Positions 21,015 through 61,295 of a stretch of DNA of 64,000 nt are shown one piece after another (the stretch's first letter is position 1; every line of letters begins with the position of its first letter). This DNA is from an uncultured Gammaproteobacteria bacterium. Its GTDB lineage: Bacteria > Patescibacteriota > Microgenomatia > CAYXHB01 > CAZYTL01. The translations under genes were made by a program, and so were the position numbers. Where the stretch lies: assembly GCA_964650355.1 (NCBI GenBank), contig CAZYTL010000001.1:85552-149551 (forward strand), in the 5' to 3' direction. Under the pieces are notes generated by a model, which was given only the letters and a program-made list of their open reading frames with translations, made no database searches and was not told where the DNA came from.

Positions 21015-21246
21015 CTTGACAGGAGTGAACAATTTGATACACTACTTGATAATTCTAATAAATAAAGGCTGTGAAGGAGTCGGTTGGGACTCCCGAGAAG
21101 CCGATCAGGCTATCCAACGAAGGAATGTCTGACCCGCAAGCCAAGCGTTATCAAACGGCAACAGTGTGTCGGCCATTACAGTTGGAGCACTGCACAATAA
21201 GGGTATCTTGTTTTGCAACTGTAACCGAGTCTGACTCGGTTTTTTT
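21015..21246 (+). ncRNA. Candidate small RNA or riboswitch-like leader: sigma70-like promoter to intrinsic terminator (~200 nt)
   Basis: TTGACA(21015)-N16-TACACT, then a structured region (ggagtc/gactcc, tccaac/gttgga, acagttg/caactgt), then ccgag-tctga-ctcgg + T7 at 21224-21246. Confidence 0.3.
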
Positions 21247-21394
21247 GTTTCCCAGAACAAGATACTGAACCAAGGTGGCACCGCCACTGATAGCTTTCAG
21301 CTTATAGCTGACAGCTTTTAGAAGGCCCTTGTAGATTTCCGAGATATTAACTCGGTGTTCTGCAAGGGCCTTTTTATTGACTCTTTAAACACTT

Positions 21395-22465
21395 ATGACC
21401 AAAGAAGTACGTCAAGTTTTAGGGAATTACCCTGAACCATATCTGACTTACGTCCGGGAAAGAAACGGGCGCGTGGGTCAACGGTTAGCAGATATATTAG
21501 GCGTAGAATACAACCCAGCCGGCATTACTGAAAACCACCATGGGGATACGTACTGGGTATTTTCTAAACCCGTGACAACGGGTGAAGCCAATGAGCTACG
21601 ATTACAGTCAGGTCAATATTTCGGTGCAGTAGTTGGGCACTCCGCTTTGGCAGACAAGGGTGTACTGCAACCATTAGTCAACGCCAATGCCTTTCACCCT
21701 GATTATTATCCTCATGGTCTAGCTGAAGAAATTGACGGAAGCGTAATTGATGGGCATCTTGTTTTTAGTAGAAAAGATGCTCAGCATAGCTATTATAGTT
21801 TAAGAACCCGAGGGCCAGTCAGACTGAAATATCCTCCCTCAAGTGACCATGATAATCAATGGATATTGAATACGGAAGACGATTTAACACTAGCCCTGAG
21901 TAATTTTTCTGGCGACCAACTTGAACAATCTGGATTAGTTCTCCAATTGGATCTCAGTCACTTACATCCCGTAACCAGAAACATAGGCCAATTAAGAATC
22001 GGTGATCACTATTTCAGTTTTATCGGCCGACAACAAAGTATTGTCCATGCAGGTAGACTAAAATATGGTGGAACCGAATTAACCATGTTTAGAGGTGGGT
22101 TAGAAGAGTTGCAGCAAACACACAGAAGAAAAATTAATGTCCATCCCCACCTGACAGAAGCCATCGAATCTGCTATAAAACTTCGACGTGCGTATCCTGG
22201 TTATGGTGTGCAAGCAACTCGTTTTTGTGTCGACACTGTAGACCAATTTGTAGTGGATCCTTCACTACGACCGGGAGGAGCCACCCCAGCTTCAGTATTG
22301 GCTATCGCTGAGTTACTGGGTAATCCCGGCGCAGATCATGTTAGTGCTGCTTCACGGTTGCATTACGATCCTGTCCCAGGGCGTGATTATCCGGGTGAAG
22401 TGTTTTTAAATCATCCAGATTTGACCATCACCGCTAGAGTGACTGGTATAAATAACGGCTTTTAA
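21395..22465 (+). CDS. Hypothetical protein (356 aa), GC-richer than neighbours
   Basis: Long ORF with no recognisable motif. Confidence 0.5.
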   Translation: MTKEVRQVLGNYPEPYLTYVRERNGRVGQRLADILGVEYNPAGITENHHGDTYWVFSKPVTTGEANELRLQSGQYFGAVVGHSALADKGVLQPLVNANAFHPDYYPHGLAEEIDGSVIDGHLVFSRKDAQHSYYSLRTRGPVRLKYPPSSDHDNQWILNTEDDLTLALSNFSGDQLEQSGLVLQLDLSHLHPVTRNIGQLRIGDHYFSFIGRQQSIVHAGRLKYGGTELTMFRGGLEELQQTHRRKINVHPHLTEAIESAIKLRRAYPGYGVQATRFCVDTVDQFVVDPSLRPGGATPASVLAIAELLGNPGADHVSAASRLHYDPVPGRDYPGEVFLNHPDLTITARVTGINNGF

Positions 22466-22620: not shown

Positions 22621-23706
22621 TTAATTAATCGACAACAGGAACTGTTTAAGAATTAAATAGTAATCATGCAAACTTTTAACACTCACCCACTCTTCATCGG
22701 TATGCAGACCTGAACCAATCGGACCAAAGGTGACACCGTCACAACCCACCTGATTATAGAGACGAATATCAGAACCACCATGTTTAACAATCAGCTTTGA
22801 AGGCTTTCCAGTAATCTTCCTGGTGGCTTGTCTGAGCTTCTTCACATACTGGTTTTGTTCATCAGTAAATTGGCAAGGTTCATTAACCACCACCTCGATC
22901 TCGGCCAAACCTTTCAGTATCTGTTTAATTCTGTTAAGAATTTCTTCTTTGTCAGCAGGAATATAGCGCACATCCACACCCAAAATACAATCTTCTGGAA
23001 CCTTATTAAAGGTTTGGTTGGTAGTCTGCAGCATTGCCAAATTAGCTGTTGTTTTCCAAGCCTCTTCCGAGGGCACCGGAAAATGTTGGTTAAATTTTTC
23101 CATTACCAGACCCATTTGGTGAATCGCATTCTCACCATTCCACGGATAAGCTCCGTGTGCAGCCTTACCTTTAGTTTTAATTTTCAGCCAAATAATTCCC
23201 TTGGCCTGATTATTCACACCGAAGTCTGTAGGTTCTCCTGCAATCACGAAATCGGCCTTAATACCTTTTTCTATCTGATATTTAGTGCCATGAAAACCGC
23301 CCACTTCTTCATCCGTTACCAACTGCAAACCCAGGGGGTAATTGACTTTGTCCGCCAACTCTTTAAATAACAAAACCATCACCGCCGCAGCGCCTTTCAT
23401 ATCTTGAGCTCCTCTACCATACAACTTGCCGTCTCTCAATTTTGGGCTGAACATCTTTTCTGGGCCGGGCACTACATCCAAATGAGCATTCAAAATTACG
23501 CGAAACCGCTGAGGAAAACTAACTTTTTTGCAAACCAATAAACTTGGTATCCCCTGGCTTTCAAACCTTTTTACGGAAAATTCTTTTAACTCTGTTTCAC
23601 ACACCTTCAGAACTTCGTGCATGGCACTTAGGTTATCCGTAACCGAATTAATTCCAATCAGTCTTTCAGCTAATTGTCTAGTCATAGTACCTGATACATA
23701 TTCCAT
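22621..23706 (-). CDS. M20 family metallopeptidase/amidohydrolase (ArgE/DapE-like)
   Basis: HLDVVP..., GRGAQDMKG and metal-binding E/H pattern of M20. Confidence 0.8.
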   Translation of the reverse strand: MEYVSGTMTRQLAERLIGINSVTDNLSAMHEVLKVCETELKEFSVKRFESQGIPSLLVCKKVSFPQRFRVILNAHLDVVPGPEKMFSPKLRDGKLYGRGAQDMKGAAAVMVLLFKELADKVNYPLGLQLVTDEEVGGFHGTKYQIEKGIKADFVIAGEPTDFGVNNQAKGIIWLKIKTKGKAAHGAYPWNGENAIHQMGLVMEKFNQHFPVPSEEAWKTTANLAMLQTTNQTFNKVPEDCILGVDVRYIPADKEEILNRIKQILKGLAEIEVVVNEPCQFTDEQNQYVKKLRQATRKITGKPSKLIVKHGGSDIRLYNQVGCDGVTFGPIGSGLHTDEEWVSVKSLHDYYLILKQFLLSIN

Positions 23707-23712
23707 TCAAAG

Positions 23713-25083
23713 TCAACCAAAGTTCTCCATATATTTTTCAGTATATATCGAAATACGCTCACGATACTTTCTTAAATGTTCATTATCTTTAGATCCGAAA
23801 AAAGCCACCGTGTTTAAAAAAGTAAATATATCTATCAAAAAATTGTCTAAATTTTCATCCATCTTATTTAAATCTATATAAAATTTTCCGTTTTTAATCT
23901 CTAAAATTTCATACTGCTGTGCCTTTAATAGCCATAAACTTGTCGAATATAAATATTCTTCTCGGAGTCCCATATTTTTATATCTTTGATATTTATATTC
24001 AAATAACAACCAATCCAACACTAGTAAATCTCTAGTTGCACCTTTATCTAACATCGAATTTTGTTCTAATAAATAAGACAAATAGAGGGAATTTATTTCA
24101 GCCCGGCCTTCCTCTATTAAAGTATAATACTTACCGAGATTAAAACTCGCATTATTCGGTTTTAAATAAGTGTGTCCGTATTCATGTAAAATTAGACTCA
24201 GTAAATACAACTTCTCCACATTGTTTTCAATATTAGTTTTTAACTTTTTATCTAATTCAAACCGAGGCCGAGCCTTCTTGACAAAAGGTACTAACTTCGC
24301 CACTTTGCTCTTCAAATTGTTAACCATAATCATTTTTATTGTCCCGTATTTCTTCGCTAAATTGACATTTTCAGGTCTTGACCAACCTTCCGTATCTAAT
24401 TTCGCCACTTCTCCACCCTCAGATACTACGTCTCCTATAAACAAGTGAACAGCCTTATTTTCATCGCTAATGGGTAAAAATGAAAGATTATTCCTCGTAA
24501 CTTCTGACAATGAATTCCAAATCTTATTATAAAATTGATATTGTAAATTTTTATACAAAAACACAGCTGTGTAAAATCTCTTCGTTCCCAATATTTTATC
24601 ATGATAACGTTCGATCGGCCCGACACTCATTAAAAAAAATGCCGATTCATCAAAACGAAGAAATTCTTTATCAGCCTTCTCCCACTCGTCAGTTAAGAAC
24701 GCTTTTTCTAAACTAGAATAAAACCTTAACCACCTTTGCGCATTAAAACTTTCTTTTATGTTGTTAACTTCGTTTTTAATATCATTAATCAATATCACAA
24801 TTTTTTTCAAATCAAATTTGTAATAATCGTGGTAAGGAATCTCTTTAACCCTACCCGCTTTAACCATCATTACAGAATACGCATTGGTTTGATACCCAGG
24901 ATTTTGGCGTAGGAAGTCTTTAACTTCTCCTTGATAAACTCCTCCCTTTTTACTCAACTGTTTTATAAACAGTCGATCTATCTCTTTAACCAACTCGATA
25001 TTCAACTTCACAAAATCAATATAAACTTTAGGGATCTTCTTAACTATATCATCGTGTGTCCGGAGATATTTTTTCATAACCAA
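23713..25083 (-). CDS. Hypothetical protein with HExxH (LILHEYGHTY), putative zinc metallopeptidase; strongly AT-rich
   Basis: HEYGH motif. Composition differs from adjacent genes. Confidence 0.45.
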   Translation of the reverse strand: MVMKKYLRTHDDIVKKIPKVYIDFVKLNIELVKEIDRLFIKQLSKKGGVYQGEVKDFLRQNPGYQTNAYSVMMVKAGRVKEIPYHDYYKFDLKKIVILINDIKNEVNNIKESFNAQRWLRFYSSLEKAFLTDEWEKADKEFLRFDESAFFLMSVGPIERYHDKILGTKRFYTAVFLYKNLQYQFYNKIWNSLSEVTRNNLSFLPISDENKAVHLFIGDVVSEGGEVAKLDTEGWSRPENVNLAKKYGTIKMIMVNNLKSKVAKLVPFVKKARPRFELDKKLKTNIENNVEKLYLLSLILHEYGHTYLKPNNASFNLGKYYTLIEEGRAEINSLYLSYLLEQNSMLDKGATRDLLVLDWLLFEYKYQRYKNMGLREEYLYSTSLWLLKAQQYEILEIKNGKFYIDLNKMDENLDNFLIDIFTFLNTVAFFGSKDNEHLRKYRERISIYTEKYMENFG

Positions 25084-25091
25084 TTACAATT

Positions 25092-26579
25092 TTAAGTCAC
25101 AATAAAAGCACCAAAACCGGCATTCGCCATCACTAAGGTCTTGAACCACGCTTCTGCCTGAGTACAACTATCTGTCGATTCTATTTCTTTAGCCATCTCT
25201 TTTATTTGATCAATAATATACTCTTGATGAGACATAGTCATTCCGTTCTCAGGAGTATATGGCTTATGCGCTCCCACTCGGGTAAAACCAAATCCATCCA
25301 AGGCGGTCGTCCTTAACTCCAAAATTCCGCCCGGTGCTAAAGGTCCTTCCGTCATCCCATTAGGAACAATTCTTAAGATATCAACCACAGGTTGGATTAA
25401 ACGGTTATTTCTAGCCTTTAATTCGTCTAATCTGCCGAACTCAATCCCATACCCAGAATCCCCGCTTACAGGTTTGTCGATAAACATCATCGCATCCTTT
25501 CCCTCCAAATCAACTTCCCCTGGGGTACAAAAGCTGGGTATCAACATTGATACCGGACCGTATTTTTCATAAACAGGCGCAAAAGTTCCTTTAGTCAACA
25601 TCGCCATTGCAACTGGATGTTCTGTCCACATATCAGGTGAATTCAGTATCCTCTTGAACATTGCTCTCTCTTCTTCATCCATCGAACTCATCACATAGCC
25701 TATTTCTCTAGGGGTGGTATTATTCAAAAAACTTTGTCCTTCAGTACTATCTGTTCTTAATCGCCCAACGAGGTCACGAATATCTATCGGATGTCTGTCG
25801 CTTCTCCCCCAAACCTGGTTAGTAGTTACCTTGTCCGGTAAAGCATGATGTATCTCTCCGGGGCGCTCGTGTACCTTGTAATCAACAACCGAAAAATCAG
25901 ACCACCCGGCAAATATTCTAGACCTCACCTCCCAATCAAAGCGACCTAAATCTACTTGGCCTCCAAAAGCTCCATTAATTAAAAAATTACGTGTAAAACC
26001 GTAATAACCCTTGAATGAGCCCTGGCCTTCCATCCCCATGAACATAAATTGCAACTCTTTCTTCTCTACGCGCCGGTGAACCTCCTCCCAATGATTGTCT
26101 CTATCATCTATTCCCACTGCCACAGGTAATCCATTTCTAACTTCAATCGGCACCGACACAAAGTCTACTACCGGAGCTAAACCTTCCTGAAAAGATTTTT
26201 CCTTAACTGCTAAAACGGTTTCCTCACTAAACAGTTTTGGGTCTTCAACTCCATACTTCTGAAGACTTGCTGCGAAAGTTAGGTTTACTCTGGCCACGGT
26301 ATCCGCATCATTTTCGTGAGCAGCTTCCTCCACCAACAAGTCAGTCGCCCGCCTTAAATACTGATAAATATACCCAGGCACCTCTACCGGGAAACTAACC
26401 ATCCTAGTCCCTGTGAAGGTACCTTGCCAATCTCGATGAGATGTACCTTGTCCTAACCCTGCCCTGCTATTAGGCCAGCCCCGGTAAGTTTCACCCAAGC
26501 TGTCGACCATCAACTTATTAGCCTGTCTCAGTTCACCAGCATTTAATTTACGCTCAGGAATAAAGTTTATGTTTCCCAT
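25092..26579 (-). CDS. Hypothetical protein (495 aa)
   Basis: Long ORF, co-directional and tightly spaced with the ligase-like gene. Confidence 0.5.
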   Translation of the reverse strand: MGNINFIPERKLNAGELRQANKLMVDSLGETYRGWPNSRAGLGQGTSHRDWQGTFTGTRMVSFPVEVPGYIYQYLRRATDLLVEEAAHENDADTVARVNLTFAASLQKYGVEDPKLFSEETVLAVKEKSFQEGLAPVVDFVSVPIEVRNGLPVAVGIDDRDNHWEEVHRRVEKKELQFMFMGMEGQGSFKGYYGFTRNFLINGAFGGQVDLGRFDWEVRSRIFAGWSDFSVVDYKVHERPGEIHHALPDKVTTNQVWGRSDRHPIDIRDLVGRLRTDSTEGQSFLNNTTPREIGYVMSSMDEEERAMFKRILNSPDMWTEHPVAMAMLTKGTFAPVYEKYGPVSMLIPSFCTPGEVDLEGKDAMMFIDKPVSGDSGYGIEFGRLDELKARNNRLIQPVVDILRIVPNGMTEGPLAPGGILELRTTALDGFGFTRVGAHKPYTPENGMTMSHQEYIIDQIKEMAKEIESTDSCTQAEAWFKTLVMANAGFGAFIVT

Positions 26580-26618
26580 AGTCAGAGAATTAAAAAATTA
26601 GAAGTAATCATATCACAA

Positions 26619-28217
26619 TTATCGCCGTACACCCAATCTTAGTTTTAAATCATCCATAAAAACTCTTCCTGCCTCCTTATTTGTCTCTCGTATCTTTTCT
26701 TCACCCGATCCTGGAACCGTGTACGCGTAATTTAAAGCTGCCCGACCTAAATTTCCTTTCAAATAAGTACCATTTCTATTATCAAAAAACCCACCCAGCC
26801 CATACTCACCCGGTAAGTTAGCTGGAGTTAATAATCGAGAAACCACATCAACGGCTCGCTCCCAATCTGCTGATCTCTCATCAGGACTTGTCCATTCTAT
26901 TAGATGTTCCCAACCCTCAGCTACCGTAACTTCTCCTCGATTTAACTTTAATACAGCCTGATCACCATATGTGATAGCCTGCACCCGATTCTCCACCCTT
27001 TTATCCATGCTTAGTGGTTGCAAAAATGCCGGCAATGGCTCTTCATCGCTTATAACATGCTTAGCTACTCTTAAAACAAATTCTCTCTGAATCACCGCTA
27101 AGGCTAAAGCCAGTTCAAAGTGATTGCCGTCGCCAGGCCCGGTCTCAAACGTCCCTGTCCTATACTTTGTCCTCGTATCTTTATGAGAACCATTTGGTCG
27201 TGATTCCTGAATTGACAACCCCATTCTTCGTTTAGCTCTCAAAACTGCCTCATCCTTGTCATCGTTCCTTCCTCCTGCTCTTTCAGGTAAAGGAATCAAA
27301 TTCTCCCGCATTAAAAGATCTCCCCGTCTCAAATGGGCAATTGCATCTACGGGAATATTTGCCTGAACGCCTCCCCTGGTGTACATTTCCCATCTTGAAA
27401 GCTCTCTGTTTGATACCCTACCAGTCAGCTGACCTTTCCAAAACGGCGCTGCCGTGGCAATCGCATTTACCAAAGTAGCCGGCAGAGTATTATAAACGTT
27501 TCCTACATAAAGCCCAAACTCAGCACTACCTCCAAACGGCATTAAATCAGTATGACACTGGATACTCGCCGCATCAAAATCAAGAGATTGCCCATTTAGA
27601 TTATATTTCATAATCCGTGCAATTAACGGGTGAGGAGAAATATTTCCCCAACCATCAGGCAGACGAGTGCCCACCATACCCAAAGGAAGTAACAAAGCTC
27701 CTTCAACTTCACATGCATCAACTAAGGGGCCTAATCCCTTCAACAAACTATCTTCTAATTCATCCCAAGTCCTGCCCGGCGGTGTGGGAATCTCGACCAC
27801 ATAATTCTGGGCTTCCGGACTGCCTCCTGCTCTATCCAATAACCATTCTCTACCGCCTCTTGTTACAGTAATCTGATCATCTTCAAATTTCACGATCCTG
27901 TCGCCACCATAAACATTAAACGGTTCACCGGTATTTGCATCGACCACCGCCAACTCATACTCTATTCCCATTCCCACCTCTCTACTATCAGGTGGTAATC
28001 TTAAACTCTTTGTCATCTTCGCGGTATGCAGACGGATAGGCAAAAGATCCGATTCTCCCACATCAAACATGGTGTCCTCCTCGCCCTCTTGTCTCAATCT
28101 ATAGGGAACTGGTTTAACGCTTAGGCTTTTTCCCCACCATACCCCTCCCTTTCTCAAGCCATCTGGTACCTGTACTGGTCTGAAACCTTCTATTTGATTA
28201 AAACCTGCCATAACCAA
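26619..28217 (-). CDS. Carboxylate-amine ligase, glutamate-cysteine ligase family 2 (YbdK/GCS2-like) with C-terminal extension
   Basis: GMGIEYELAVVDANTGEP resembles the YbdK N-terminal GIELE.Q.V motif. NYVVEIPT resembles the E(L/I)xT motif. IQCHTDL may be the H.H motif. Confidence 0.5.
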   Translation of the reverse strand: MVMAGFNQIEGFRPVQVPDGLRKGGVWWGKSLSVKPVPYRLRQEGEEDTMFDVGESDLLPIRLHTAKMTKSLRLPPDSREVGMGIEYELAVVDANTGEPFNVYGGDRIVKFEDDQITVTRGGREWLLDRAGGSPEAQNYVVEIPTPPGRTWDELEDSLLKGLGPLVDACEVEGALLLPLGMVGTRLPDGWGNISPHPLIARIMKYNLNGQSLDFDAASIQCHTDLMPFGGSAEFGLYVGNVYNTLPATLVNAIATAAPFWKGQLTGRVSNRELSRWEMYTRGGVQANIPVDAIAHLRRGDLLMRENLIPLPERAGGRNDDKDEAVLRAKRRMGLSIQESRPNGSHKDTRTKYRTGTFETGPGDGNHFELALALAVIQREFVLRVAKHVISDEEPLPAFLQPLSMDKRVENRVQAITYGDQAVLKLNRGEVTVAEGWEHLIEWTSPDERSADWERAVDVVSRLLTPANLPGEYGLGGFFDNRNGTYLKGNLGRAALNYAYTVPGSGEEKIRETNKEAGRVFMDDLKLRLGVRR

Positions 28218-28218
28218 T

Positions 28219-28290
28219 AAAAAAACCTCCCTTTTTTAGGAGGTTGGGAAAAATAAAATGGGACGAACTTAAGTCATCTGTTGCCCTAAC
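28219..28290 (-). promoter_or_regulatory. 5' leader attenuator: AACCUCC/GGAGGUU hairpin + U-run 10 nt before ATG, with upstream GGGAGGUUAGGG copy
   Basis: Minus strand: ggctgaGGGAGGTTaggg ... ttCCCAACCTCCtaaaaaaGGGAGGTTttttttta-ATG. Confidence 0.55.
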
Positions 28291-28380
28291 CTCCCTCAGC
28301 CGTTAATAATAACGACTTCTCGGGAGATAGTAATGACGACAACAGAAAAATTCATATTAGCACTATTAGATTTGAAGTAT

Positions 28381-28443
28381 ATTTTAACCTTTTGTAGCTG
28401 GCTGTCAAGCAGCACTTGACAAAATTGAATCTATTGATAATAT
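28381..28443. promoter_or_regulatory. Back-to-back divergent sigma70-like promoters
   Basis: Plus strand: TTGACA(28416-21)-N16-TAATAT(28438-43). Minus strand: TTGACA(28408-03)-N16-TAAAAT(28386-81). Confidence 0.55.
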
Positions 28444-28513
28444 AAGCTCTAATGTATAGAGAATTATCTCTCCTTAGCCTTCTTAGCTTGCTCCTCCTTG
28501 AGGAGTAGCTAAA

Positions 28514-28582
28514 CGTGGGGAGAGACGTATTCTTTTTAATTCACTTTTATCAATTCACCTCTCCCCAGGAGAGGTTTTTTTA
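28514..28582 (+). promoter_or_regulatory. 5' leader attenuator: ACCUCUCC/GGAGAGGU hairpin + U7, upstream GGGGAGAG copy
   Basis: gtGGGGAGAGacg (28517-24) ... cACCTCTCCccaGGAGAGGTttttttt (28557-81), then ATG at 28608. Confidence 0.55.
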
Positions 28583-28607
28583 TTGCTAGAAAATACATTA
28601 CTCGCTT

Positions 28608-29870
28608 ATGGCATTTAATACAGATGAGACCAAGAATCATTTGTTTTCCGGCTGGTGGAACGATGTGAGCAGAAAATTTCCCCAACCCGTACATCAAGAT
28701 CAATCAGCTCGGGAAATACTAACTACTGCTCGTCAAGAGGCGCGACCGGTAGCTTTATTAATGGTTGGTTGTTTAAATTGGAGACAGGCTGAGTACGATC
28801 CAGAAAATAATTGGATAACTGCGTTGGATTCCCAAAACAAAAGACTTCAAGCCACCAGGGATCGGATTGCCAGTTTAGTATCTGGGTTACATTCCTTTGG
28901 AATTCCCACTCAACAATTTTTAAGCTTATCTCGCTTAGAAGCTGAGACTCTTACCTTAGGTACTCTGGGAAAGAGTGTCGTTAACACTCCCGAAGAGATC
29001 AGGGCGGTTCAAGAAAAGAGCATCGATACTGCTCATCAACTTTTCGCTGAACGGGGAGTAGCCGTCACTTTTATAGATGATACACAAGTGTTTATGCGTG
29101 AACATCATGCTGATAGCATCTCGACACTGCAAGAAAGGCTCATAGGTGATGGGGACGGTATAAGTGGCTTTTATACCGGTATGTATGAAAGTTTAGTAAG
29201 ACATCTTCCTCCAGAAGCACTTAGTAAGACCATGGAACAGACAGATCAGACTCCAGCAGGCATTATCTGGCTAGATCTAATGTCACCTCTTGCCGGACCT
29301 CATAGAGCCGAACTTTTGGACATGGGAACACGGTATAGACCAGAAATGCCAATTATTACTCCTTCCGCCAACTCGGGTAAGTGGTGGACACCTAGGACTA
29401 GAGAAGCAATGTTTCCCGACAAACTAGATTTTATTGGCCGCAGGCTAGGAATATCTACCTATCCGGGAGCTTCTATTGGGGAAGAAGATCTTATTAGAAT
29501 AATTCCTAAATTAGGAAGAACCAAACTAGCAAGATTTTTCGATGTTCCAAGGGATCAAATCAACAGAGGGGATGCTATCGACAGAATCTTTGAAATATCA
29601 GGGGTCAGAAACTCAGCTCAAGAAGCAACGCCTGATGACGCTCCGTACACCGCAGAACCTGGCGACAATATCCTTGGTGTTTACAAAGAAGTTACCGGAA
29701 AAAGTACCAATCATACGATTAAAGATCTCCGTAGGGGTATTTGGGCAGAAATACCTGTTGATGGAAATCCAGAGAGGAAACTAATTAAGGATGGTCGGAT
29801 CCCTGTTCAGCCGGGAATGAGACTAAATACCGGTAGAAACCAATGGACTTTGATTAACTTTCCAGAATAA
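28608..29870 (+). CDS. Hypothetical protein (420 aa)
   Basis: Long ORF, first gene of the plus-strand operon. Confidence 0.5.
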   Translation: MAFNTDETKNHLFSGWWNDVSRKFPQPVHQDQSAREILTTARQEARPVALLMVGCLNWRQAEYDPENNWITALDSQNKRLQATRDRIASLVSGLHSFGIPTQQFLSLSRLEAETLTLGTLGKSVVNTPEEIRAVQEKSIDTAHQLFAERGVAVTFIDDTQVFMREHHADSISTLQERLIGDGDGISGFYTGMYESLVRHLPPEALSKTMEQTDQTPAGIIWLDLMSPLAGPHRAELLDMGTRYRPEMPIITPSANSGKWWTPRTREAMFPDKLDFIGRRLGISTYPGASIGEEDLIRIIPKLGRTKLARFFDVPRDQINRGDAIDRIFEISGVRNSAQEATPDDAPYTAEPGDNILGVYKEVTGKSTNHTIKDLRRGIWAEIPVDGNPERKLIKDGRIPVQPGMRLNTGRNQWTLINFPE

Positions 29871-29872
29871 AT

Positions 29873-30907
29873 ATGAATACCAAATTAATTACTGACATTA
29901 GAGATCTGCTAATCAAGATGAAACTTGAGGCTGTGGTCATTTATTCGGGGAGCTCTGACGATCGTTTTATGAAAGCCATCGCTGGAACGCCGTCATTATT
30001 AGAAGATTACGTTTTAATTACACCTAAAAACGCTTTCATTTCTGAGCCAAGATATATAACGGCTTATACCAGACGCAAAACCACAATCCCTATTTTGGAT
30101 GCTCCAAGCGAAAGACAACTTATAGAACCCTTGATCGCCGTTATCGGAGGTCACAAAAATATTGGGATTGCAGGGAGTTGTAGATATCAAGATATTGTCA
30201 GCCTTAAACCGAATCAAGTGACAGATATCACTTCCCAAATCAACAAATTGTTAAGACATAAATCCGACTCTTATATTAAAAAACTAAAAAAGTTAGCCAA
30301 AAGTACTTCTCGAATAATGGAATCTCTCGCGATTAAAACAGGCGATCAACAATCAAAAATTGCTCAAAAGCTACACACCGCAGCTATTGAGTTAAATGGT
30401 GATTTAGCTTTTCCGATCTGTATCACCAGTGGCCGTGATCTGGAAACTAGTACCAGTACTCCTGCTAGTGCAAAAGTAATAAGAAAAAACGACGCTGTTT
30501 GTATTGATATGGGGATAAAGAGCGACATTTATGCCACCGACTGCACCAGAATGTATTTTATTAACCATCCGAACAAGAAAGCCCTCTATTTAGGAATCGT
30601 TAAAGCTCATAACGAAATTATAGATAATTTCATCAGACCTGAGAGGACTTTCAGAGAAATTATTGATGAGTATCACAGAAAATTTAAAAACCACCGCCAT
30701 ATTAAAGAAATTAGAGAGTTAGGTATTGGACATGGTATTGGCTATGGGCTTCATGAATATCCTGAAATTGCAGAAGTAGATAAAGAACCCGTGGGTACAA
30801 ATATTGTCTTCACCCTAGAGCCGACTTTTATCACTACCATGGGAAGATTTAGAGTTGAAGACATGATCAGCGTTGATTCTCAGGGGGTAGTTAGCAAGTT
30901 AACTTAA
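29873..30907 (+). CDS. M24-family (creatinase/prolidase 'pita-bread' fold) metallopeptidase-like protein
   Basis: D...D (CIDMGIKSDIYATD), H (GHGIGYGLHEYP) and E (FTLEP) in M24 order. Paralog of 31919..32944. Confidence 0.65.
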   Translation: MNTKLITDIRDLLIKMKLEAVVIYSGSSDDRFMKAIAGTPSLLEDYVLITPKNAFISEPRYITAYTRRKTTIPILDAPSERQLIEPLIAVIGGHKNIGIAGSCRYQDIVSLKPNQVTDITSQINKLLRHKSDSYIKKLKKLAKSTSRIMESLAIKTGDQQSKIAQKLHTAAIELNGDLAFPICITSGRDLETSTSTPASAKVIRKNDAVCIDMGIKSDIYATDCTRMYFINHPNKKALYLGIVKAHNEIIDNFIRPERTFREIIDEYHRKFKNHRHIKEIRELGIGHGIGYGLHEYPEIAEVDKEPVGTNIVFTLEPTFITTMGRFRVEDMISVDSQGVVSKLT

Positions 30908-30912
30908 AATAT

Positions 30913-31869
30913 ATGACAATTACAACATCCGAAACGCGGCGATTTCGAGGGCTTCAATGGGAGTTAGCGCCCCCTATAGGGGATAACGGTGCTGGCAAAG
31001 TGAACACTTTACCAGAGAGTACTATCGGCTATCTTGCTGACCAAATTGATGCCAGATTTACATTACCGGGAAGTGCAAAAGGGGGATTACAAAATTTAGA
31101 CAGATTACGTTTACTTGGTGACCGTTTACCTGTAACAGTCGTACTTTGCCCCTTGTACTTAAAAGCAGGTGGATTTGTAACTAGAGAGTCAGGTTTAACC
31201 ATCGAAGACAGCCGAATAGGAATAAAATGGCGGGAACAAGAAAAGATGTTAGATTTACTTGGCGCGGTAACTGAGAAGGAAGGTCTGAAATTAGATCCCA
31301 GATTTACTTTTGCCGATAGAGGAGTAATTGTTCCTGAAAGCCCAAATGGGAAGCTTGCCTCTATATTAGCCTATCATCAGGATCTTTATCAAAGTAGACT
31401 TGACGGCTTATTCCCAGAAGGTTATCAACTAGACACCTTTACCAGTTTAACAGACCAATACCCGACTATCGCGGGTGATTACCCCCGTTTTATAATTCCG
31501 GATGGAATACAAGACCAGAAGTACGTCCAAAGTCAAGAACCTACTACAATAGCTGCTCTTCAAGACTTAGTAGACAGAGGACTTGTTGAATCTAATGATG
31601 TATTCAGGGTTAATCCAGCAGGTGAGAAAGAATTACTAAAACGCGTTAGAAACCGCCTAAGAGGTTTAGTAAAGTTTGGTGGATATAATCTGGCATTAGA
31701 ATTTGTCCGTCAATATCACACTTTCAACAATGCCCTTGTAGCATCTAATCCCGAACATGGTTTGCATACCTACTTTGAACGCGTTGATTATCTTCTGACT
31801 TCGATGAATACTTTGGCTCGGAGATCTCCTGCTGCCACTAATCCCCGAGTAGAAGTCCTCTGTAAATAA
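30913..31869 (+). CDS. Hypothetical protein (318 aa)
   Basis: ORF between the two M24 paralogs. Confidence 0.5.
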   Translation: MTITTSETRRFRGLQWELAPPIGDNGAGKVNTLPESTIGYLADQIDARFTLPGSAKGGLQNLDRLRLLGDRLPVTVVLCPLYLKAGGFVTRESGLTIEDSRIGIKWREQEKMLDLLGAVTEKEGLKLDPRFTFADRGVIVPESPNGKLASILAYHQDLYQSRLDGLFPEGYQLDTFTSLTDQYPTIAGDYPRFIIPDGIQDQKYVQSQEPTTIAALQDLVDRGLVESNDVFRVNPAGEKELLKRVRNRLRGLVKFGGYNLALEFVRQYHTFNNALVASNPEHGLHTYFERVDYLLTSMNTLARRSPAATNPRVEVLCK

Positions 31870-31918
31870 GTTGAGCAATCCATAGAATTCAAAAGGGGCG
31901 ACTAGAAAATAGATTAAA

Positions 31919-32944
31919 TTAGGTTATTTTTATAACTTCTTTCTTTGAATTGACCGCAATCATATCTTCAATTCTCATTCTGCCGTACGGGGTAATAAAA
32001 GTAGGCTCTAAAGTAAAAACTATATTCTTACCGATTTTCGAACTACCTGACTCCACATTTGGTTTTTCATGAAGTGCGAACCCTATCCCGTGTCCTAAAT
32101 CAGATTCCATCACTTCTTCAATCTGATGATATTTTTTTGAAAAACGACGATATCTTTGAATAGTTTCATCAAATCTTGTATTGCTTGTAAGGCTGTCAAT
32201 TACTTTATTGTGGATCCGAATTATTTGTTGATATAAGCTTTCAGCTTTTGGTTGATTAACAAAAAACATTCTTGTGAAATCAGTTGTATAAATTGAATAT
32301 TTAACTCCCATATCGATACAAATCATGTCTTTAGCTCCAATAATTTTATTACTCGCCAAACAACTGGTAGAAATTTTTATATCCTGGCCGCTGGTGATAC
32401 AAACAGGAAAAGCTAACTGTAAATTTCTGTTTATAACTTTCACCTGCAACCTTTTACTCAATTCCAATTGATTTATAGAAGAAACTACCTGGATAGACGT
32501 TAAAATCTTATTCGTAACTCTTGCATACCGTTTCAAGTTGTTAATATAATCATCACTTTTATATCTCACTACATCACTAGCACTAAGGTTTAAATCTATT
32601 GTTGATTTAGGTTCCAAACTAACTATATCTGGATATTTACAATTACCCACGATACCAATCAATTTGTTTGTCCCGATTATAGATTTAATACCATTGATCA
32701 CTTCATTTTCACCCTCTACTGAGACAATATTTAAAGTTGTCCTTTTTTTTAAATCAGCTACTAAATAACTCGCTTCTGAGATGCTTATACTATTAGCAGT
32801 AACCACCAGATAATTTTGCAATACTGAATAAGTACCACTAAGTGCTTTCATATACCTGTCGTCATATGCGTTAGCATAAACAACGATCGCGTCTAGTGTA
32901 TATTTTTTAAGCAGCCTTTGAAATTTTTGAATGTAATAATTCAT
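31919..32944 (-). CDS. M24-family metallopeptidase-like protein (paralog)
   Basis: CIDMGVKYSIYTTD, LGHGIGFALHEKP and FTLEPTFIT align with 29873..30907. Confidence 0.65.
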   Translation of the reverse strand: MNYYIQKFQRLLKKYTLDAIVVYANAYDDRYMKALSGTYSVLQNYLVVTANSISISEASYLVADLKKRTTLNIVSVEGENEVINGIKSIIGTNKLIGIVGNCKYPDIVSLEPKSTIDLNLSASDVVRYKSDDYINNLKRYARVTNKILTSIQVVSSINQLELSKRLQVKVINRNLQLAFPVCITSGQDIKISTSCLASNKIIGAKDMICIDMGVKYSIYTTDFTRMFFVNQPKAESLYQQIIRIHNKVIDSLTSNTRFDETIQRYRRFSKKYHQIEEVMESDLGHGIGFALHEKPNVESGSSKIGKNIVFTLEPTFITPYGRMRIEDMIAVNSKKEVIKIT

Positions 32945-33999
32945 AAGCCGTATTCACTAGCTTCATCAGCTATGGTTTCTAAAGATTTACCTAAATAAGG
33001 CACCTTTACTGCCCCGTCACTCAACAGTACAAGATTGTGAAAAGGTCTTAATATTGATGTTCTAGGTCGGGAACCACCATCAGGATAATCTAAATTATAC
33101 GCATAAAATTCCTTATGCCCAGGATTTAAAGGTCCCGGTATAGTATCTAACATGACTACGTCTCCCTTGTGTGTCAACTTTGTTCCAAACAAAGTATTAC
33201 TAAAGTCTTGGAGGTGATCGCCTGTTGCTGCAACTAATCCAAAATTTTCATCGACCACTCTCTGTATAATTTCTTCCCTTGTCGTGTACCCTCCCCAGGC
33301 ATATTGAAGCCATGAACCATCTGCTTCTACAGTAGTCCTTAGTAATCCTGCCCAGCGATTATCACCCTCAGCCATTATTCCTCTCAGCTGAGAATTCCAC
33401 CAATCCCAGTGATGATAAAAGCCATCAACTTGTACTTTGCTTTCTGGATGTGCAACAATATCCGTTAATTTTACAACCTTAGTAGACATAGGGATATCTC
33501 CATTAAAAGAACGCTGGGATAACCCGTGAGATAGTAAATTTGTGATAGTTTCAACGTTACGGCAGGTAGTTAAACGAATATGTTCTTTTAATTCTTCTGC
33601 TGATCTACCTCTATGGTCAAGATTTAATGGACTAAATAATTGCTCACTCATACCGACATCAACTAAAACTATTCCGAGATTAAACGGGATACCTAAGAGA
33701 TTTAAATCTAATAATCGACTGGGTAGTTCTTCATGTAATAATACATAACCACGCCTTAAACCATATCCAGAACTGTCCCACACCATTTCATTGTGAACGG
33801 TAGGTCTACGTACTCCATCTATTTGATAAGTTTCATAATTAGCACAAATAGGAGAAACTAATGGAGCTGGAATTCCAGACTCTGCGGCCTGGGTTAGTAT
33901 ACGCACCGCTTGATCAGGATATTCAAATCTCTCTTTGGAAAGAGACTCCTTTTGCCATCTTTGAATAACAGCTTCAATTTCTAGTTGTTTATTTGACAT
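32941..33999 (-). CDS. Hypothetical protein (352 aa)
   Basis: ORF with a 4-nt overlap onto the downstream M24 paralog. Confidence 0.5.
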   Translation of the reverse strand: MSNKQLEIEAVIQRWQKESLSKERFEYPDQAVRILTQAAESGIPAPLVSPICANYETYQIDGVRRPTVHNEMVWDSSGYGLRRGYVLLHEELPSRLLDLNLLGIPFNLGIVLVDVGMSEQLFSPLNLDHRGRSAEELKEHIRLTTCRNVETITNLLSHGLSQRSFNGDIPMSTKVVKLTDIVAHPESKVQVDGFYHHWDWWNSQLRGIMAEGDNRWAGLLRTTVEADGSWLQYAWGGYTTREEIIQRVVDENFGLVAATGDHLQDFSNTLFGTKLTHKGDVVMLDTIPGPLNPGHKEFYAYNLDYPDGGSRPRTSILRPFHNLVLLSDGAVKVPYLGKSLETIADEASEYGL

Positions 34000-34015
34000 A
34001 ATTAATGTTTATCCA

Positions 34016-34096
34016 CTAAAAAAACCTCCTTTTAGGAGGTTTGTGATTTAATAATTGTGGTTTAGTTTTATTTATCTTCTGCCACAAACCTCCGCT
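34016..34096 (-). promoter_or_regulatory. 5' leader attenuator: CACAAACCUCC/GGAGGUUU hairpin + U-run, with upstream GGAGGUUUGUG copy
   Basis: Minus strand: gcGGAGGTTTGTGgc (34081-95) ... tCACAAACCTCCtaaaaGGAGGTTTttttttag (34046-16), then ATG at 33999. Confidence 0.55.
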
Positions 34097-34261
34097 TCTT
34101 TAGTTAAAGAAGAAAAAGAAGGTCTGGAAAGCAAAAGAGTTTGATTGCATACTGATCTGTAGACTTATTATGGGTGATAATACTAGATTCGGAAACAGTG
34201 TCAAGTATTAAAATTGACTTAAACGGCACTTAGACAATTATGTTTTTGAAATCTTTACACT

Positions 34262-59608: not shown

Positions 59609-60811
59609 TCACTCTCTGCTTTGCTCCTCAGAGGTTTGATACATTCCTGGGTTAGTGGCTGTGAAGATTGCCAAAAGGGGTAGCAATCCACCTACCATTA
59701 AAGCTATGCTGAGCGATTTGTCCGCCAGCATCCCCATAAGCGGATTTAGAATTATCAGTGGGACCTTGTGGGCCATCGCCACAAAAGAAAGCATCGTGGC
59801 TCTCTCGTTTTCGGGAATATGCACATTTACGTGTGTGGCGATCAACTCCCGTCTGGTCAATCCCACGCCACCGGCTAACACTAGAAAACACGCAATAGTT
59901 AACAGGCTGGGATATAAAGCCGTAATCCCAAAACCCACTGCTGTTACAATTGCCGATACCCGTAAATACCGGTGGGTGGAACGAAACAATTTCTCAGAGA
60001 ACGGGAACAGCAAAGCTACCAGTACTTCTATGACCACCAGACCACCGTGTATCCAACCATAGTACTCTATACCTACCCCCTGGGACTTTAATAACGGCTG
60101 ATATAACCAGATTACATAATAAGCTCCTGTAGCTACCAGAATTGAGTCGATCGCCATCCATTTGATAGCTCTATTTTTCCACACGTATCTACCCCCTTTC
60201 TTGGCTATCGTTAGCCATCTTTTACTCTCACTTATCTGGTTTCTTCTCGGCGGTTCTTTAATACTCCAACAGGTGACTGCTGCCAAGAAGAAAGGTATAG
60301 ACGACAGATACATCGGAGCATTGATGCTGATGTGAGAGGCTATTATCCCGCCTATCGGGGCAGAGATCGCCATCGCCGCAAATTTGACTGCATAAGCCCT
60401 TCCGAAGATTTTTGTTCTTTTAGCTTCTAGGTTTGCCGACCTTAAGGTGTCGTAAAGGAGGGCGTTATCTGCACCAGAGGTCAGAGCCAAACCCATGGCA
60501 AACAAAAATTCTCCTAGCAAAAACACCTCAAATTTGGGAAAGCTTCCGTAAACCACGGTAGCCATACTTACCACCAAGGCTCCTAATGCTACCGAATGTT
60601 TCCGGCCAAAGTAGTCAGCCACTACTCCAGTGGGAACCTCCAGTACAAAAGCCCAAAACATGAACCAGGACTGTAGAAAGTAAGCGTGAAACAATCCCAG
60701 TCCTGCCCAGTCTGTGAATAACGGCGTGAGCACAGCCGCAAACAAACTGGCATTTTTAAAAAACACATACAGGTAGTATTTAATTAAAGTGTTTCTGAAA
60801 GTGGTATTCAT
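59609..60811 (-). CDS. MFS transporter (12 TM)
   Basis: Hydrophobicity pattern and GRK/ADKS loop motifs. Good SD (aaggagacagatcATG). Confidence 0.8.
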   Translation of the reverse strand: MNTTFRNTLIKYYLYVFFKNASLFAAVLTPLFTDWAGLGLFHAYFLQSWFMFWAFVLEVPTGVVADYFGRKHSVALGALVVSMATVVYGSFPKFEVFLLGEFLFAMGLALTSGADNALLYDTLRSANLEAKRTKIFGRAYAVKFAAMAISAPIGGIIASHISINAPMYLSSIPFFLAAVTCWSIKEPPRRNQISESKRWLTIAKKGGRYVWKNRAIKWMAIDSILVATGAYYVIWLYQPLLKSQGVGIEYYGWIHGGLVVIEVLVALLFPFSEKLFRSTHRYLRVSAIVTAVGFGITALYPSLLTIACFLVLAGGVGLTRRELIATHVNVHIPENERATMLSFVAMAHKVPLIILNPLMGMLADKSLSIALMVGGLLPLLAIFTATNPGMYQTSEEQSRE

Positions 60812-61021
60812 GATCTGTCTCCTTTCTTTAATGTTTGTTAAAGTGCCCGGCTAATAACGGATATTCCCAGATCCGTAGATCACCCGATCCTGAGCGAATC
60901 AGAATTAGTGATTTGTTTAGCCGGGTAAACCTCCGAGAAAAGGATTATTAAAAATTATTAACATTGCTTATCTGTGATAAATTTCTCTAGTTTAATTAGT
61001 TAATTTTCATGCTTTGCCATT

Positions 61022-61160
61022 AAAAAAGCCTCCTTTTCGGAGGCTGTGTCGGGAAAACAAATGTGATTGAATTATTAACTTCCACCCACGACTACAACCT
61101 CCATGGCCGGGTTAGCATCGACAGAGTCGATAGCTCCAGCGAAAAGCATGGAGGTTTTGG
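61022..61160 (-). promoter_or_regulatory. Leader attenuator (4th copy): AGCCUCC/GGAGGCU hairpin + U-run, upstream GGAGGUUGU copy, 6-codon uORF
   Basis: Minus strand: ggccatGGAGGTTGTag (61119-05) ... gaCACAGCCTCCgaaaaGGAGGCTtttttaATGGCAAAGCATGAAAATTAA. Promoter TTGACT-N17-TAAAAT at 61288-61260. Confidence 0.5.
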
Positions 61161-61295
61161 GATATTGTTGCCAGCAACGTTGTCTTTCCATAAACTACTT
61201 TAAGAGTCGAAATAGTTATTTATACAGCAGAAGCTATGCTCCAATCCGTATATTGGTATATTTTATCCCATAAGTTAAATTAAGTCAAAAAACCG

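Follow-up and report, generated by a model that had tools for sequence, protein, structure and literature searches.

In the stretch of 64,000 nucleotides analysed here (contig CAZYTL010000001.1, hereafter the window), a minus-strand gene encoding a homologue of GCS2-like carboxylate-amine ligases and a plus-strand gene of a family here called X1 are transcribed away from each other, and the intergenic region between them accommodates two divergent leaders, A and B, of about 160 nt each; a third leader, C, built like A and B, is found about 5.5 kb away (34204..34000, minus strand), in front of the gene here called X2 (Table 1). The structure of these three leaders, the operons that they precede and the homologous leaders of other organisms are the focus of the present report; as argued below, all three are very probably transcription attenuators of the ribosome-mediated type known from the trp, his, leu and pheA operons.

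Leaders A and B are fed by strong divergent promoters, whose -35 hexamers are separated by only 7 bp (28409-28415). In a consensus scan of 20 kb, the two sites matching at 11 of 12 positions, and the only ones to do so, are the promoters of leaders A and C (28408 and 34204), and that of leader B (28416) is one among three sites with 10 matches. Both divergent leaders are far more structured than expected from their dinucleotide composition, with folding z-scores of -5.4 and -4.8 (0 of 200 shuffles as good). Leader C was detected through a tail common to the three, AGGTTTTTTTA(T/G)TG; the exact tail AGGTTTTTTTATTG is present in both the A and B hairpins, with one further, one-mismatch copy at 34014-34027 (minus strand).

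Table 1. Features of the three leaders and of the operons behind them (positions of the window), and homologous leaders on other contigs. Leader peptides are given up to the stop codon.
Feature	Position (strand)	Description
Intergenic region	28212-28607	between minus gene 26619-28211 and plus gene 28608-29870, divergent
Leader A (Val/Ile), promoter	28408..28381 (-)	-35 TTGACA 28408..28403, N16, -10 TAAAAT 28386..28381; 11/12 matches (consensus scan)
Leader A, ORF	28355..28296 (-)	MNFSVVVITISREVVIING; 5 Val and 4 Ile among 18 residues after Met; UGA stop abuts segment 2
Leader A, segment 1	28322..28328 (-)	AUCUCCC (codons 10-12); anti-antiterminator partner of segment 2 (minimum free energy fold)
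Leader A, inner hairpin	28299..28316 (-)	nested within helix 1:2; covers second Val/Ile run (VVII)
Leader A, segment 2	28295..28284 (-)	GGGAGGTTAGGG (RNA GGGAGGUUAGGG); partner of segment 1 or segment 3
Leader A, segment 3	28238..28248 (-)	CCCAACCUCCU; CCC outside terminator stem, paired in antiterminator only
Leader A, terminator	28245..28224 (-), to 28219 with U-run	AACCTCCT-AAAAAA-GGGAGGTT, then T7; -10.9 kcal/mol
Leader A, terminator as RNA	28219..28245 (-)	AACCUCCU-AAAAAA-GGGAGGUU, then U-run
Leader B (Leu), promoter	28416..28443 (+)	TTGACA-N16-TAATAT, TG-extended -10; 10/12 matches (consensus scan)
Leader B, ORF	28452..28508 (+)	MYRELSLLSLLSLLLLEE; 9 Leu of 17
Leader B, segment 1	28467..28476 (+)	UCUCUCCUUA, codons 6-9
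Leader B, inner hairpin	28483..28512 (+)	UUAGCUUGCUCCUCC-UUG-AGGAGUAGCUAA; covers Leu codons 11-16 and stop codon
Leader B, segment 2	28516..28525 (+)	TGGGGAGAGA (RNA UGGGGAGAGA); 7 nt past stop codon
Leader B, segment 3	28558..28567 (+)	CCUCUCCCCA; takes in loop CCA, paired in antiterminator only
Leader B, terminator	28557..28575 (+), to 28582 with U7	ACCTCTCC-CCA-GGAGAGGT, then T7; -11.9 kcal/mol
Leader B, terminator as RNA	28557..28582 (+)	ACCUCUCC-CCA-GGAGAGGU, then U7
Leader C (Phe), promoter	34204..34177 (-)	TTGACA-N16-TATTAT; 11/12 matches
Leader C, ORF	34150..34100 (-)	MQSNSFAFQTFFFFFN; 7 Phe of 15
Leader C, switch	34018..34126 (-)	whole switch; within it, segment 1 34126..34118 and inner hairpin 34112..34095
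Leader C, segment 2	34093..34082 (-)	GGAGGUUUGUGG
Leader C, segment 3	34045..34035 (-)	CACAAACCUCC
Leader C, terminator	34042..34022 (-)	hairpin, then U7
Operon A	22621..28211 (-)	gaps 6-39 nt; GCS2-like carboxylate-amine ligase homologue 26619-28211 (530 aa; PF04107)
Operon A, further genes	(-)	two uncharacterised proteins 25092-26579, 23713-25083; M20 ArgE/DapE-type deacylase 22621-23706
Operon B	28608..31869 (+)	X1 28608-29870 (420 aa), M24 hydrolase 29873-30907, X3 30913-31869
Operon C	31919..33999 (-)	X2 32941-33999 (352 aa), second M24 hydrolase 31919-32944
Homologous leader L003a		MQAARKGFFNFFFTS; genes behind: X1-M24-X3
Homologous leader L003b		MQRNLSLIFVIIILLSGI; genes behind: 466-aa gene and M20
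Homologous leader L013 (= L010, L017)		MKSANTFFFACFFSLAKGRYGSGA; genes behind: X2-M24
Homologous leader L011		...ISFTFFVGFGP; genes behind: X2-M24
Homologous leader L018a		MNINSTITNTDLLIVVISG; gene behind: 438-aa gene
Homologous leader L018b		MTQTQNITISILLNLLT; genes behind: X3-X1-M24
Homologous leader L018c		MKISNRNTNTSSNIVVIIR; gene behind: GCS2-like, 32% identical to that of the window

Each of the three leaders ends in a hairpin (-10.8 to -11.9 kcal/mol) with U7 behind it, that is, in what has the form of an intrinsic terminator, located 12 nt (A) and 33 nt (B) before the respective ATGs (28211 and 28608). An earlier note on this DNA, dealing with leaders A and B, had described the back-to-back promoters (TTGACA-N16 boxes), the CCUCC/GGAGG hairpins with U-runs before both ATGs and, further upstream in each leader, a second copy of the hairpin's 3' arm; all of these are present, the copies being listed in Table 1 as segment 2. 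The proposal made there, that terminator and antiterminator pairing exclude each other, proved sound: the alternative duplex is energetically substantial, amounting to -18.1 kcal/mol in each of the two leaders, against shuffle means near -8 kcal/mol. In the minimum free energy (MFE) folds of A and B the upstream copy does not stand free; it pairs with a pyrimidine-rich segment lying farther upstream, so that each leader is seen to possess four mutually complementary segments, which form helices 1:2 and 3:4 and, alternatively, 2:3. Including leader C, the 2:3 duplexes reach -18.1 (A), -18.1 (B) and -20.4 kcal/mol (C), with shuffle means between -5 and -8 kcal/mol and 0, 3 and 0 of 500 shuffles, respectively, as good; moreover, they extend past the terminator stem, taking in CCC (A), the loop CCA (B) and CACAA (C), and because of this use of bases outside the stem the antiterminator is more than a by-product of two GGAGG arms.

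The fourth complementary segment (segment 1) lies inside a short open reading frame (ORF) of biased amino acid composition; both the segment and the ORF are found in each leader, and both had been overlooked by the earlier note. The ORFs of the window leaders span 16-19 codons (in leader B, the ATG is some 2 nt away from where transcription is predicted to begin) and carry clusters of putative regulatory codons (9/17 Leu in B, 7/15 Phe in C, 9/18 Val plus Ile in A). When compared with the 516 ATG-initiated ORFs of 12-30 codons found on both strands of the window, ORF B ranks first in single-residue enrichment, ORF C ranks at most second, and ORF A is tied for the top fraction of Val plus Ile. 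Segment 1 overlaps the regulatory codons and, in silico, pairs with segment 2; the latter begins 0 (A), 7 (B) or 6 nt (C) past the stop codon, and the distance from the stop codon to the terminator is 48-57 nt in all three. In leader A a mini-ORF (AUG-ACU-UAA, 28269-28277, minus strand) occurs 7 nt past the end of segment 2; it is absent from the other leaders and probably fortuitous.

Such an arrangement matches the published I:II / II:III / III:IV model of attenuation (PMC1183508), and for what would happen in vivo, namely stalling, termination and their coupling, we infer the following sequence of events. The transcript would open with the short ORF, rich in Val/Ile (A), Leu (B) or Phe (C) codons and overlapping segment 1, the partner of the GGAGG-type segment 2 that lies 0-7 nt past the stop codon; segment 2 may alternatively pair with segment 3, which is the 5' arm of the terminator, segment 4 being its 3' arm, followed by U7. 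Under a shortage of the cognate charged tRNA, a ribosome stalled on the regulatory codons would mask segment 1, whereupon 2:3 would form before segment 4 exists and RNA polymerase would enter the operon; when charged tRNA is ample, the ribosome would reach the stop codon and either occlude segment 2 or be released, allowing 1:2 to re-form, so that 3:4 would form and transcription would terminate. If the leader is not translated at all, both 1:2 and 3:4 would form, again with termination.

The alternative folds required by this scheme were obtained in silico, the position of the ribosome being modelled as a footprint constraint in ViennaRNA. In the absence of a ribosome, helices 1:2 and 3:4 form in the three window leaders, with the exception of leader B when truncated before segment 4, the MFE of which is already 2:3 (that of the full-length leader is 1:2 plus 3:4). 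When a footprint covers segment 1 and segment 4 is still to be transcribed, 2:3 is predicted in all three; once the ribosome is placed at the stop codon, 2:3 is gone from leader A or shrinks to a remnant of 6-8 bp in B and C (-2.8 to -7.0 kcal/mol). For leader C, a clean switch is seen even at equilibrium with segment 4 included.

Whether this layout is conserved was assessed on homologous leaders, read on contigs found through the M24 protein and on one contig found through the X1 family; seven such leaders, located on rare metagenomic contigs, some of them belonging to the candidate phyla radiation (CPR; uncultured bacteria with small genomes), were compared with the three of the window. A predicted translatable ORF between promoter and terminator is found in all ten, encoding peptides of 15-24 residues in which composition is conserved and sequence is not. 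The MFE folds of the homologous leaders are again of the 1:2 plus 3:4 type, except in L018a and L018b, where, at full length, a 2:3-type helix is nested inside a longer-range 1:4 pairing; the ORF of L013 is exceptional in running through segment 2, at variance with the placement of the stop codon in the window leaders. When all ten are taken together, the pairing of each segment 2 is stronger with segment 3 of the same leader (mean -17.9 kcal/mol) than with those of the other leaders (-14.0 kcal/mol), and a total as good as the observed one arises in only 3 of 100,000 permutations (2 of 5040 when seven leaders are considered). The earlier note had named as the outcome that would tell against it a lack of covariation or conservation together with negligible pairing; what was found is the opposite, because the layout is energetically substantial and co-varies in the homologous leaders.

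The predicted amino acid specificity of the leaders follows gene orthology: X2 is preceded by a Phe-rich leader in the window and in L013/L010, and the GCS2-like gene by an Ile/Val leader both in the window and in L018. The leader of L011, also in front of X2, combines 4 Phe with 4 Val and 3 Ile, its Phe codons sitting on segment 1; in L002 a partial X2 and M24 pair lies directly upstream of pheS/pheT. Between L010 and L013, the sole difference inside the ORF is a synonymous TTT/TTC change of a Phe codon.

These comparisons bear on the nature of the sensor. The earlier note had likened the layout to that of riboswitches and attenuators; the mutually exclusive pairing on which this rested is real and conserved, but an aptamer as the sensing part is not borne out, since no Rfam family is matched and the spacers are unconserved, and an ORF is found instead. 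Indeed, a search of the whole window against Rfam release 15 (which would include the enterobacterial amino acid leader families) at the gathering threshold returned three tRNAs and nothing else, and in the region 28100-28700, even at E<=10, the matches were chance-level hits to snoRNA, sRNA and miRNA families, with no leader family among them. One might still suppose that the 1:2 region binds a metabolite or a protein, as in riboswitches or in PyrR- and LicT-like antitermination, the ORFs being incidental; the terminator/antiterminator pair is real, and the hairpin nested between segments 1 and 2 could be the binding site. Such a reading is nevertheless very improbable, given not only the lack of any Rfam match but also that nested hairpins and spacers share no sequence among the seven leaders that were aligned, that L003a is devoid of any nested hairpin, that the ORFs are the most amino-acid-biased of the 516, are present in 10/10 leaders and keep their amino acid class across orthologues, and that the lone L010/L013 substitution in the ORF is silent. 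A metabolite riboswitch in particular was ruled out on the missing Rfam match and on the absence of conserved sequence outside the terminator in the aligned leaders; PyrR-like binding, which had been considered because of the motif CCAGGAGAGG in the terminator of leader B, was rejected since the motif does not occur in the other leaders and no Rfam family is matched.

An independent indication of what the leaders sense is provided by relatives in which the leader peptide is replaced. In the loci L005, L009, L002 and L020, the X1 homologues are preceded by T-boxes, scoring 116.6 (L005), 75.2 (L009) and 57.2 bits (L002) against RF00230, that of L020 having been read by eye; the specifier is UAC (Tyr) in L009 and L002, as aligned to the Rfam consensus, and was read as UAC by eye, by analogy, in L005 and L020. 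In L005 (3071-3492) the T-box is followed by a gene for tRNA-Tyr(GUA), identified by ARAGORN, and then by X1 and M24, a SET-domain gene and tyrS; by eye, the same order is found in L020 (about 1-420), with a tRNA whose anticodon loop carries GUA and then X1 and M24. A T-box placed before a tRNA gene is, to our knowledge, unusual. The gene tyrS also lies downstream of the X1 and M24 pair in L002. That T-boxes and leader peptides replace each other in front of syntenic genes has been documented (PMC2965389); since both report the charging of one tRNA, the window leaders are thereby independently supported as amino acid sensors. The two kinds of leader have in common the sensing of a specific tRNA's charging, the choice between terminator and antiterminator and the equivalent position upstream of X1 homologues; they differ in that the window leaders would sense indirectly, through the translating ribosome. 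Stem I, the specifier loop and the T-box sequence are all missing from leaders A-C, and RF00230 has no match at E<=10 in 28100-28700.

The same exchange weighs against the possibility that the short ORFs are genes in their own right, for small hydrophobic peptides that function by themselves and are made from separate, terminated transcripts, the operons being expressed independently. The peptides are hydrophobic indeed, and promoter, ORF and terminator could together form a self-contained small gene; yet they measure 15-24 residues and conserve nothing but composition, the 12-33 nt between terminator and gene start hold no promoter-like site, the conserved, co-varying 2:3 pairing would be left without a role, and in relatives a T-box takes the leader's place upstream of homologous X1 genes. 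This explanation is therefore scarcely probable, and attenuation by a translated leader is preferred.

In describing the hairpins, the earlier note had stressed that their arms mimic the 3' end of 16S rRNA and a Shine-Dalgarno (SD) sequence, and that neither ATG has an obvious SD of its own. The latter statement is true yet unremarkable, as an SD-like motif (GGAG, GAGG or AGGA at -20 to -4) precedes only 9 of the 56 large ORFs of the window; given this rarity, the missing SD on both structural genes and leader ORFs is normal here. Many start codons of the window lie a few bases behind TAAAAT- or TATAAT-like -10 boxes, which, with the rarity of SD motifs, suggests widespread leaderless or SD-independent initiation in this genome. 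The mimicry, on the other hand, is not needed: besides the scarce use of SD, the distance from the GGAGG arm to the start codon is 10-33 nt across the ten leaders, against about 5-10 nt for a functional SD, and on these two grounds it was rejected as the main mechanism. CCUCC/GGAGG is taken, for the same reasons, as a building block of the leader family, its composition being most simply a family trait of four mutually complementary segments. Control that is mainly translational, with hairpins sequestering a GGAGG SD or titrating the 16S 3' end and U-runs that are not terminators, is likewise very unlikely. In its favour are leader A, the only one with an in-frame TTG 8 nt past the 3' arm GGGAGG (the ATG of the 530-aa gene follows at 14 nt), and a distance from GGAGG to the start of 10-16 nt in 5/10 leaders; in the other five, B and C included, this distance is 22-33 nt, stems with a U7 tract behind them are canonical as intrinsic terminators, the amino-acid-biased ORFs would be left unexplained, and the rarity of SD motifs applies here as well. 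Masking of an SD may act as a secondary layer in leader A only.

Several observations weigh against ribosome-mediated attenuation as the function of the three leaders. The complementarity of segments 2 and 3 is partly built in, since segments 2 and 4 are both GGAGG-like, and the 2:3 duplexes of L003b and L011 are modest (28/500 and 25/500 shuffles as good). At equilibrium and with segment 4 present, leaders A and B hold on to the terminator at most stall positions, so that these two would need kinetic, co-transcriptional control; in E. coli trp, too, 3:4 is more stable than 2:3 and co-transcriptional control is likewise needed. The apparent specificity of leader A and of several relatives is less sharp because Val, Ile, Leu and Thr codons are mixed; the leader ORFs have no SD, with ORF B starting almost at the predicted 5' end of the transcript, though this is the norm in this genome; the regulated genes have no assigned pathway with which the leader amino acid could be matched; and the evidence consists of sequence and computed folds for an uncultured organism.

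With the enterobacterial attenuators (trpL, hisL, leuL, pheL/pheA, pheM/pheST, ilvL/ivbL, thrL), the window leaders share a promoter succeeded by a short ORF that contains a regulatory codon run, the 1:2, 2:3 and 3:4 helices and an intrinsic terminator immediately ahead of the first structural gene; the Phe leaders resemble the Phe-run type of pheL (PMC3082878). They differ in resembling no Rfam family by sequence or covariance model, in their nearly leaderless ORFs devoid of SD, in the CCUCC/GGAGG core common to every segment, in the hairpin nested inside helix 1:2, in regulated genes that are near-orphans (TyrRS/CDPS-like with S4, M24, M20 and GCS2-like; see below) rather than biosynthetic genes or known aminoacyl-tRNA synthetases (aaRS), and in hosts that appear to be uncultured and CPR-like. 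With the attenuators of trp, ilvB and leuA in Actinobacteria (PMC1262725, PMC10272879) and of hisS/hisZ in Bacillus (PMC2965389) they would share the mechanism, those too being recognised by an ORF with a codon run and by alternative hairpins; phylum, sequences and regulated genes are different.

The operons behind the leaders form a 13-kb island (22621-33999) in which three operons are predicted to be controlled by attenuators and the proteins are almost all singletons. The 420-, 530-, 352-, 495- and 318-aa proteins are one-member clusters at 90% identity among about 15 billion sequences, and for the 420- and 530-aa proteins no word-sharing homologue besides the queries was found in 5.8 billion clusters. 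A HMMER scan of 1.84 billion proteins gathered 34 representatives of the X1 family at E<=1e-3. The AlphaFold model of X1, computed from an alignment of 29 sequences (predicted local distance difference test score, pLDDT, 92.8), has as its closest Foldseek match a full-length bacterial tyrosyl-tRNA synthetase (TyrRS; E 5e-6, probability 1.0), followed by the isonitrile synthases PvcA/IsnA and by cyclodipeptide synthases (CDPS). Sequence profiles likewise indicate an S4 domain, with matches to uS4 (1.2e-5) and TyrRS (5.2e-5), the Pfam S4 domain being matched in 5/29 members; X1 thus models as a Rossmann fold of the TyrRS/isonitrile-synthase/cyclodipeptide-synthase kind with a C-terminal S4-like domain. 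HIGH and KMSKS motifs were absent from the 12 members scanned; the family conserves GC.NW, S..E, W.D..S and N.G.W, with Cys55, Asn255 and Trp259 invariant.

The M24 subfamily, to which both window paralogues belong, comprises about 14 clusters at 43-48% identity, the next matches lying at E 1e-15, and has no Pfam match to creatinase_N. It keeps D212, D223, H287, E316 and E329 invariant, which we take to be the M24 metal ligands, and because these are kept the window proteins are probably active hydrolases. For X2, single-sequence AlphaFold gave no usable model (pLDDT 34), and the 466-aa gene of L003 shows no homology to the 456-aa or 495-aa genes of the window. Scans of genomes and of metagenomes with the M24 profile returned only 3 loci each; the upstream region of L015, a GC-rich locus, looks unrelated, L014 is distant, and in L019, where an X1-like gene without S4 occurs in a different context, no such leader was found in the 190 nt upstream of the neighbouring gene.

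Since T-boxes and attenuators switch on when the tRNA is uncharged, the regulated modules would be expected to replenish the cognate amino acid or aminoacyl-tRNA and not to use it up. Indirect support for a tie between the operons and particular amino acids comes from pheS/pheT next to X2 and M24 in L002, from the Tyr T-boxes with tRNA-Tyr or tyrS at X1 homologues and from the TyrRS-like fold of X1. It is conceivable, though doubtful, that attenuators and T-boxes together mark an as yet unrecognised, tRNA-linked, amino-acid-specific module of reduced-genome, CPR-like bacteria, consisting of a class-I-aaRS/CDPS-like enzyme (devoid of HIGH and KMSKS, with the Cys motif GC.NW and mostly with a TyrRS-type S4 domain for tRNA binding) and an M24 hydrolase, with paralogues for Leu, Phe and Tyr and, together with GCS2/M20, for Ile/Val; if true, this would imply a new route of supply, such as the salvage of peptides or diketopiperazines, or a non-canonical aminoacylation.

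Two further structured regions of the window deserve mention. A leader of about 340 nt at 21016-21395 (plus strand), with a TTGACA-N16-TACACT promoter, lies upstream of a DUF3182 gene (21395-22465); it has terminator-like hairpins at 21223-21241, followed by T7, and at 21322-21372 (AAGGCCCTTG...CAAGGGCCTT, then TTTTTATTG), begins with AAAGGCTGTGAAGGAG, as the relatives' T-boxes do, and also holds AAGGTGGCACCGCC. Its candidacy as a divergent T-box was dropped, there being no Rfam match at E<=1 and none to an nhmmer profile of three of the relatives' T-boxes. A hairpin AGCCTCCGAAAAGGAGGCT followed by T6 (61027-61045, minus strand) stands in the middle of the 480-nt intergenic region 60812-61295, upstream of a gene for a major facilitator superfamily transporter (59609-60811); it has no Rfam match and may represent a further leader, a small RNA or the upstream gene's terminator.

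As to the hosts, the nearest relatives of the cluster genes are found in a metagenome-assembled genome (MAG) of Candidatus Chisholmbacteria (L013, MHCL01000011.1), on contigs with DUF5660 and DUF5665, which we presume to be typical of CPR genomes, and on one contig with a gammaproteobacterial label (L012); the window itself probably has its affinity with CPR/Microgenomates. The homologous locus of an X gene and M24 in L012 (on the same contig as L009, CAYJSC010000032.1) belongs to a MAG labelled 'uncultured Gammaproteobacteria', a label that may be an error of binning or classification. CPR bacteria largely lack amino acid biosynthesis.

Attenuation by leader peptides has been described from Proteobacteria, from Actinobacteria and from some Firmicutes (PMC2965389, PMC1262725), and no report of it, or of T-boxes, in CPR/Patescibacteria was found in the literature searched. 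The present leaders would therefore extend it to such a lineage and to a genome mostly devoid of SD sequences. Here a textbook mechanism would serve as a functional label on otherwise unannotatable genes, in that the leaders tell which amino acid each operon may answer to (Leu, Phe and Val/Ile, to which the T-boxes of the relatives add Tyr), and it offers a testable hypothesis on the supply of amino acids or aminoacyl-tRNAs in apparently CPR-related bacteria.

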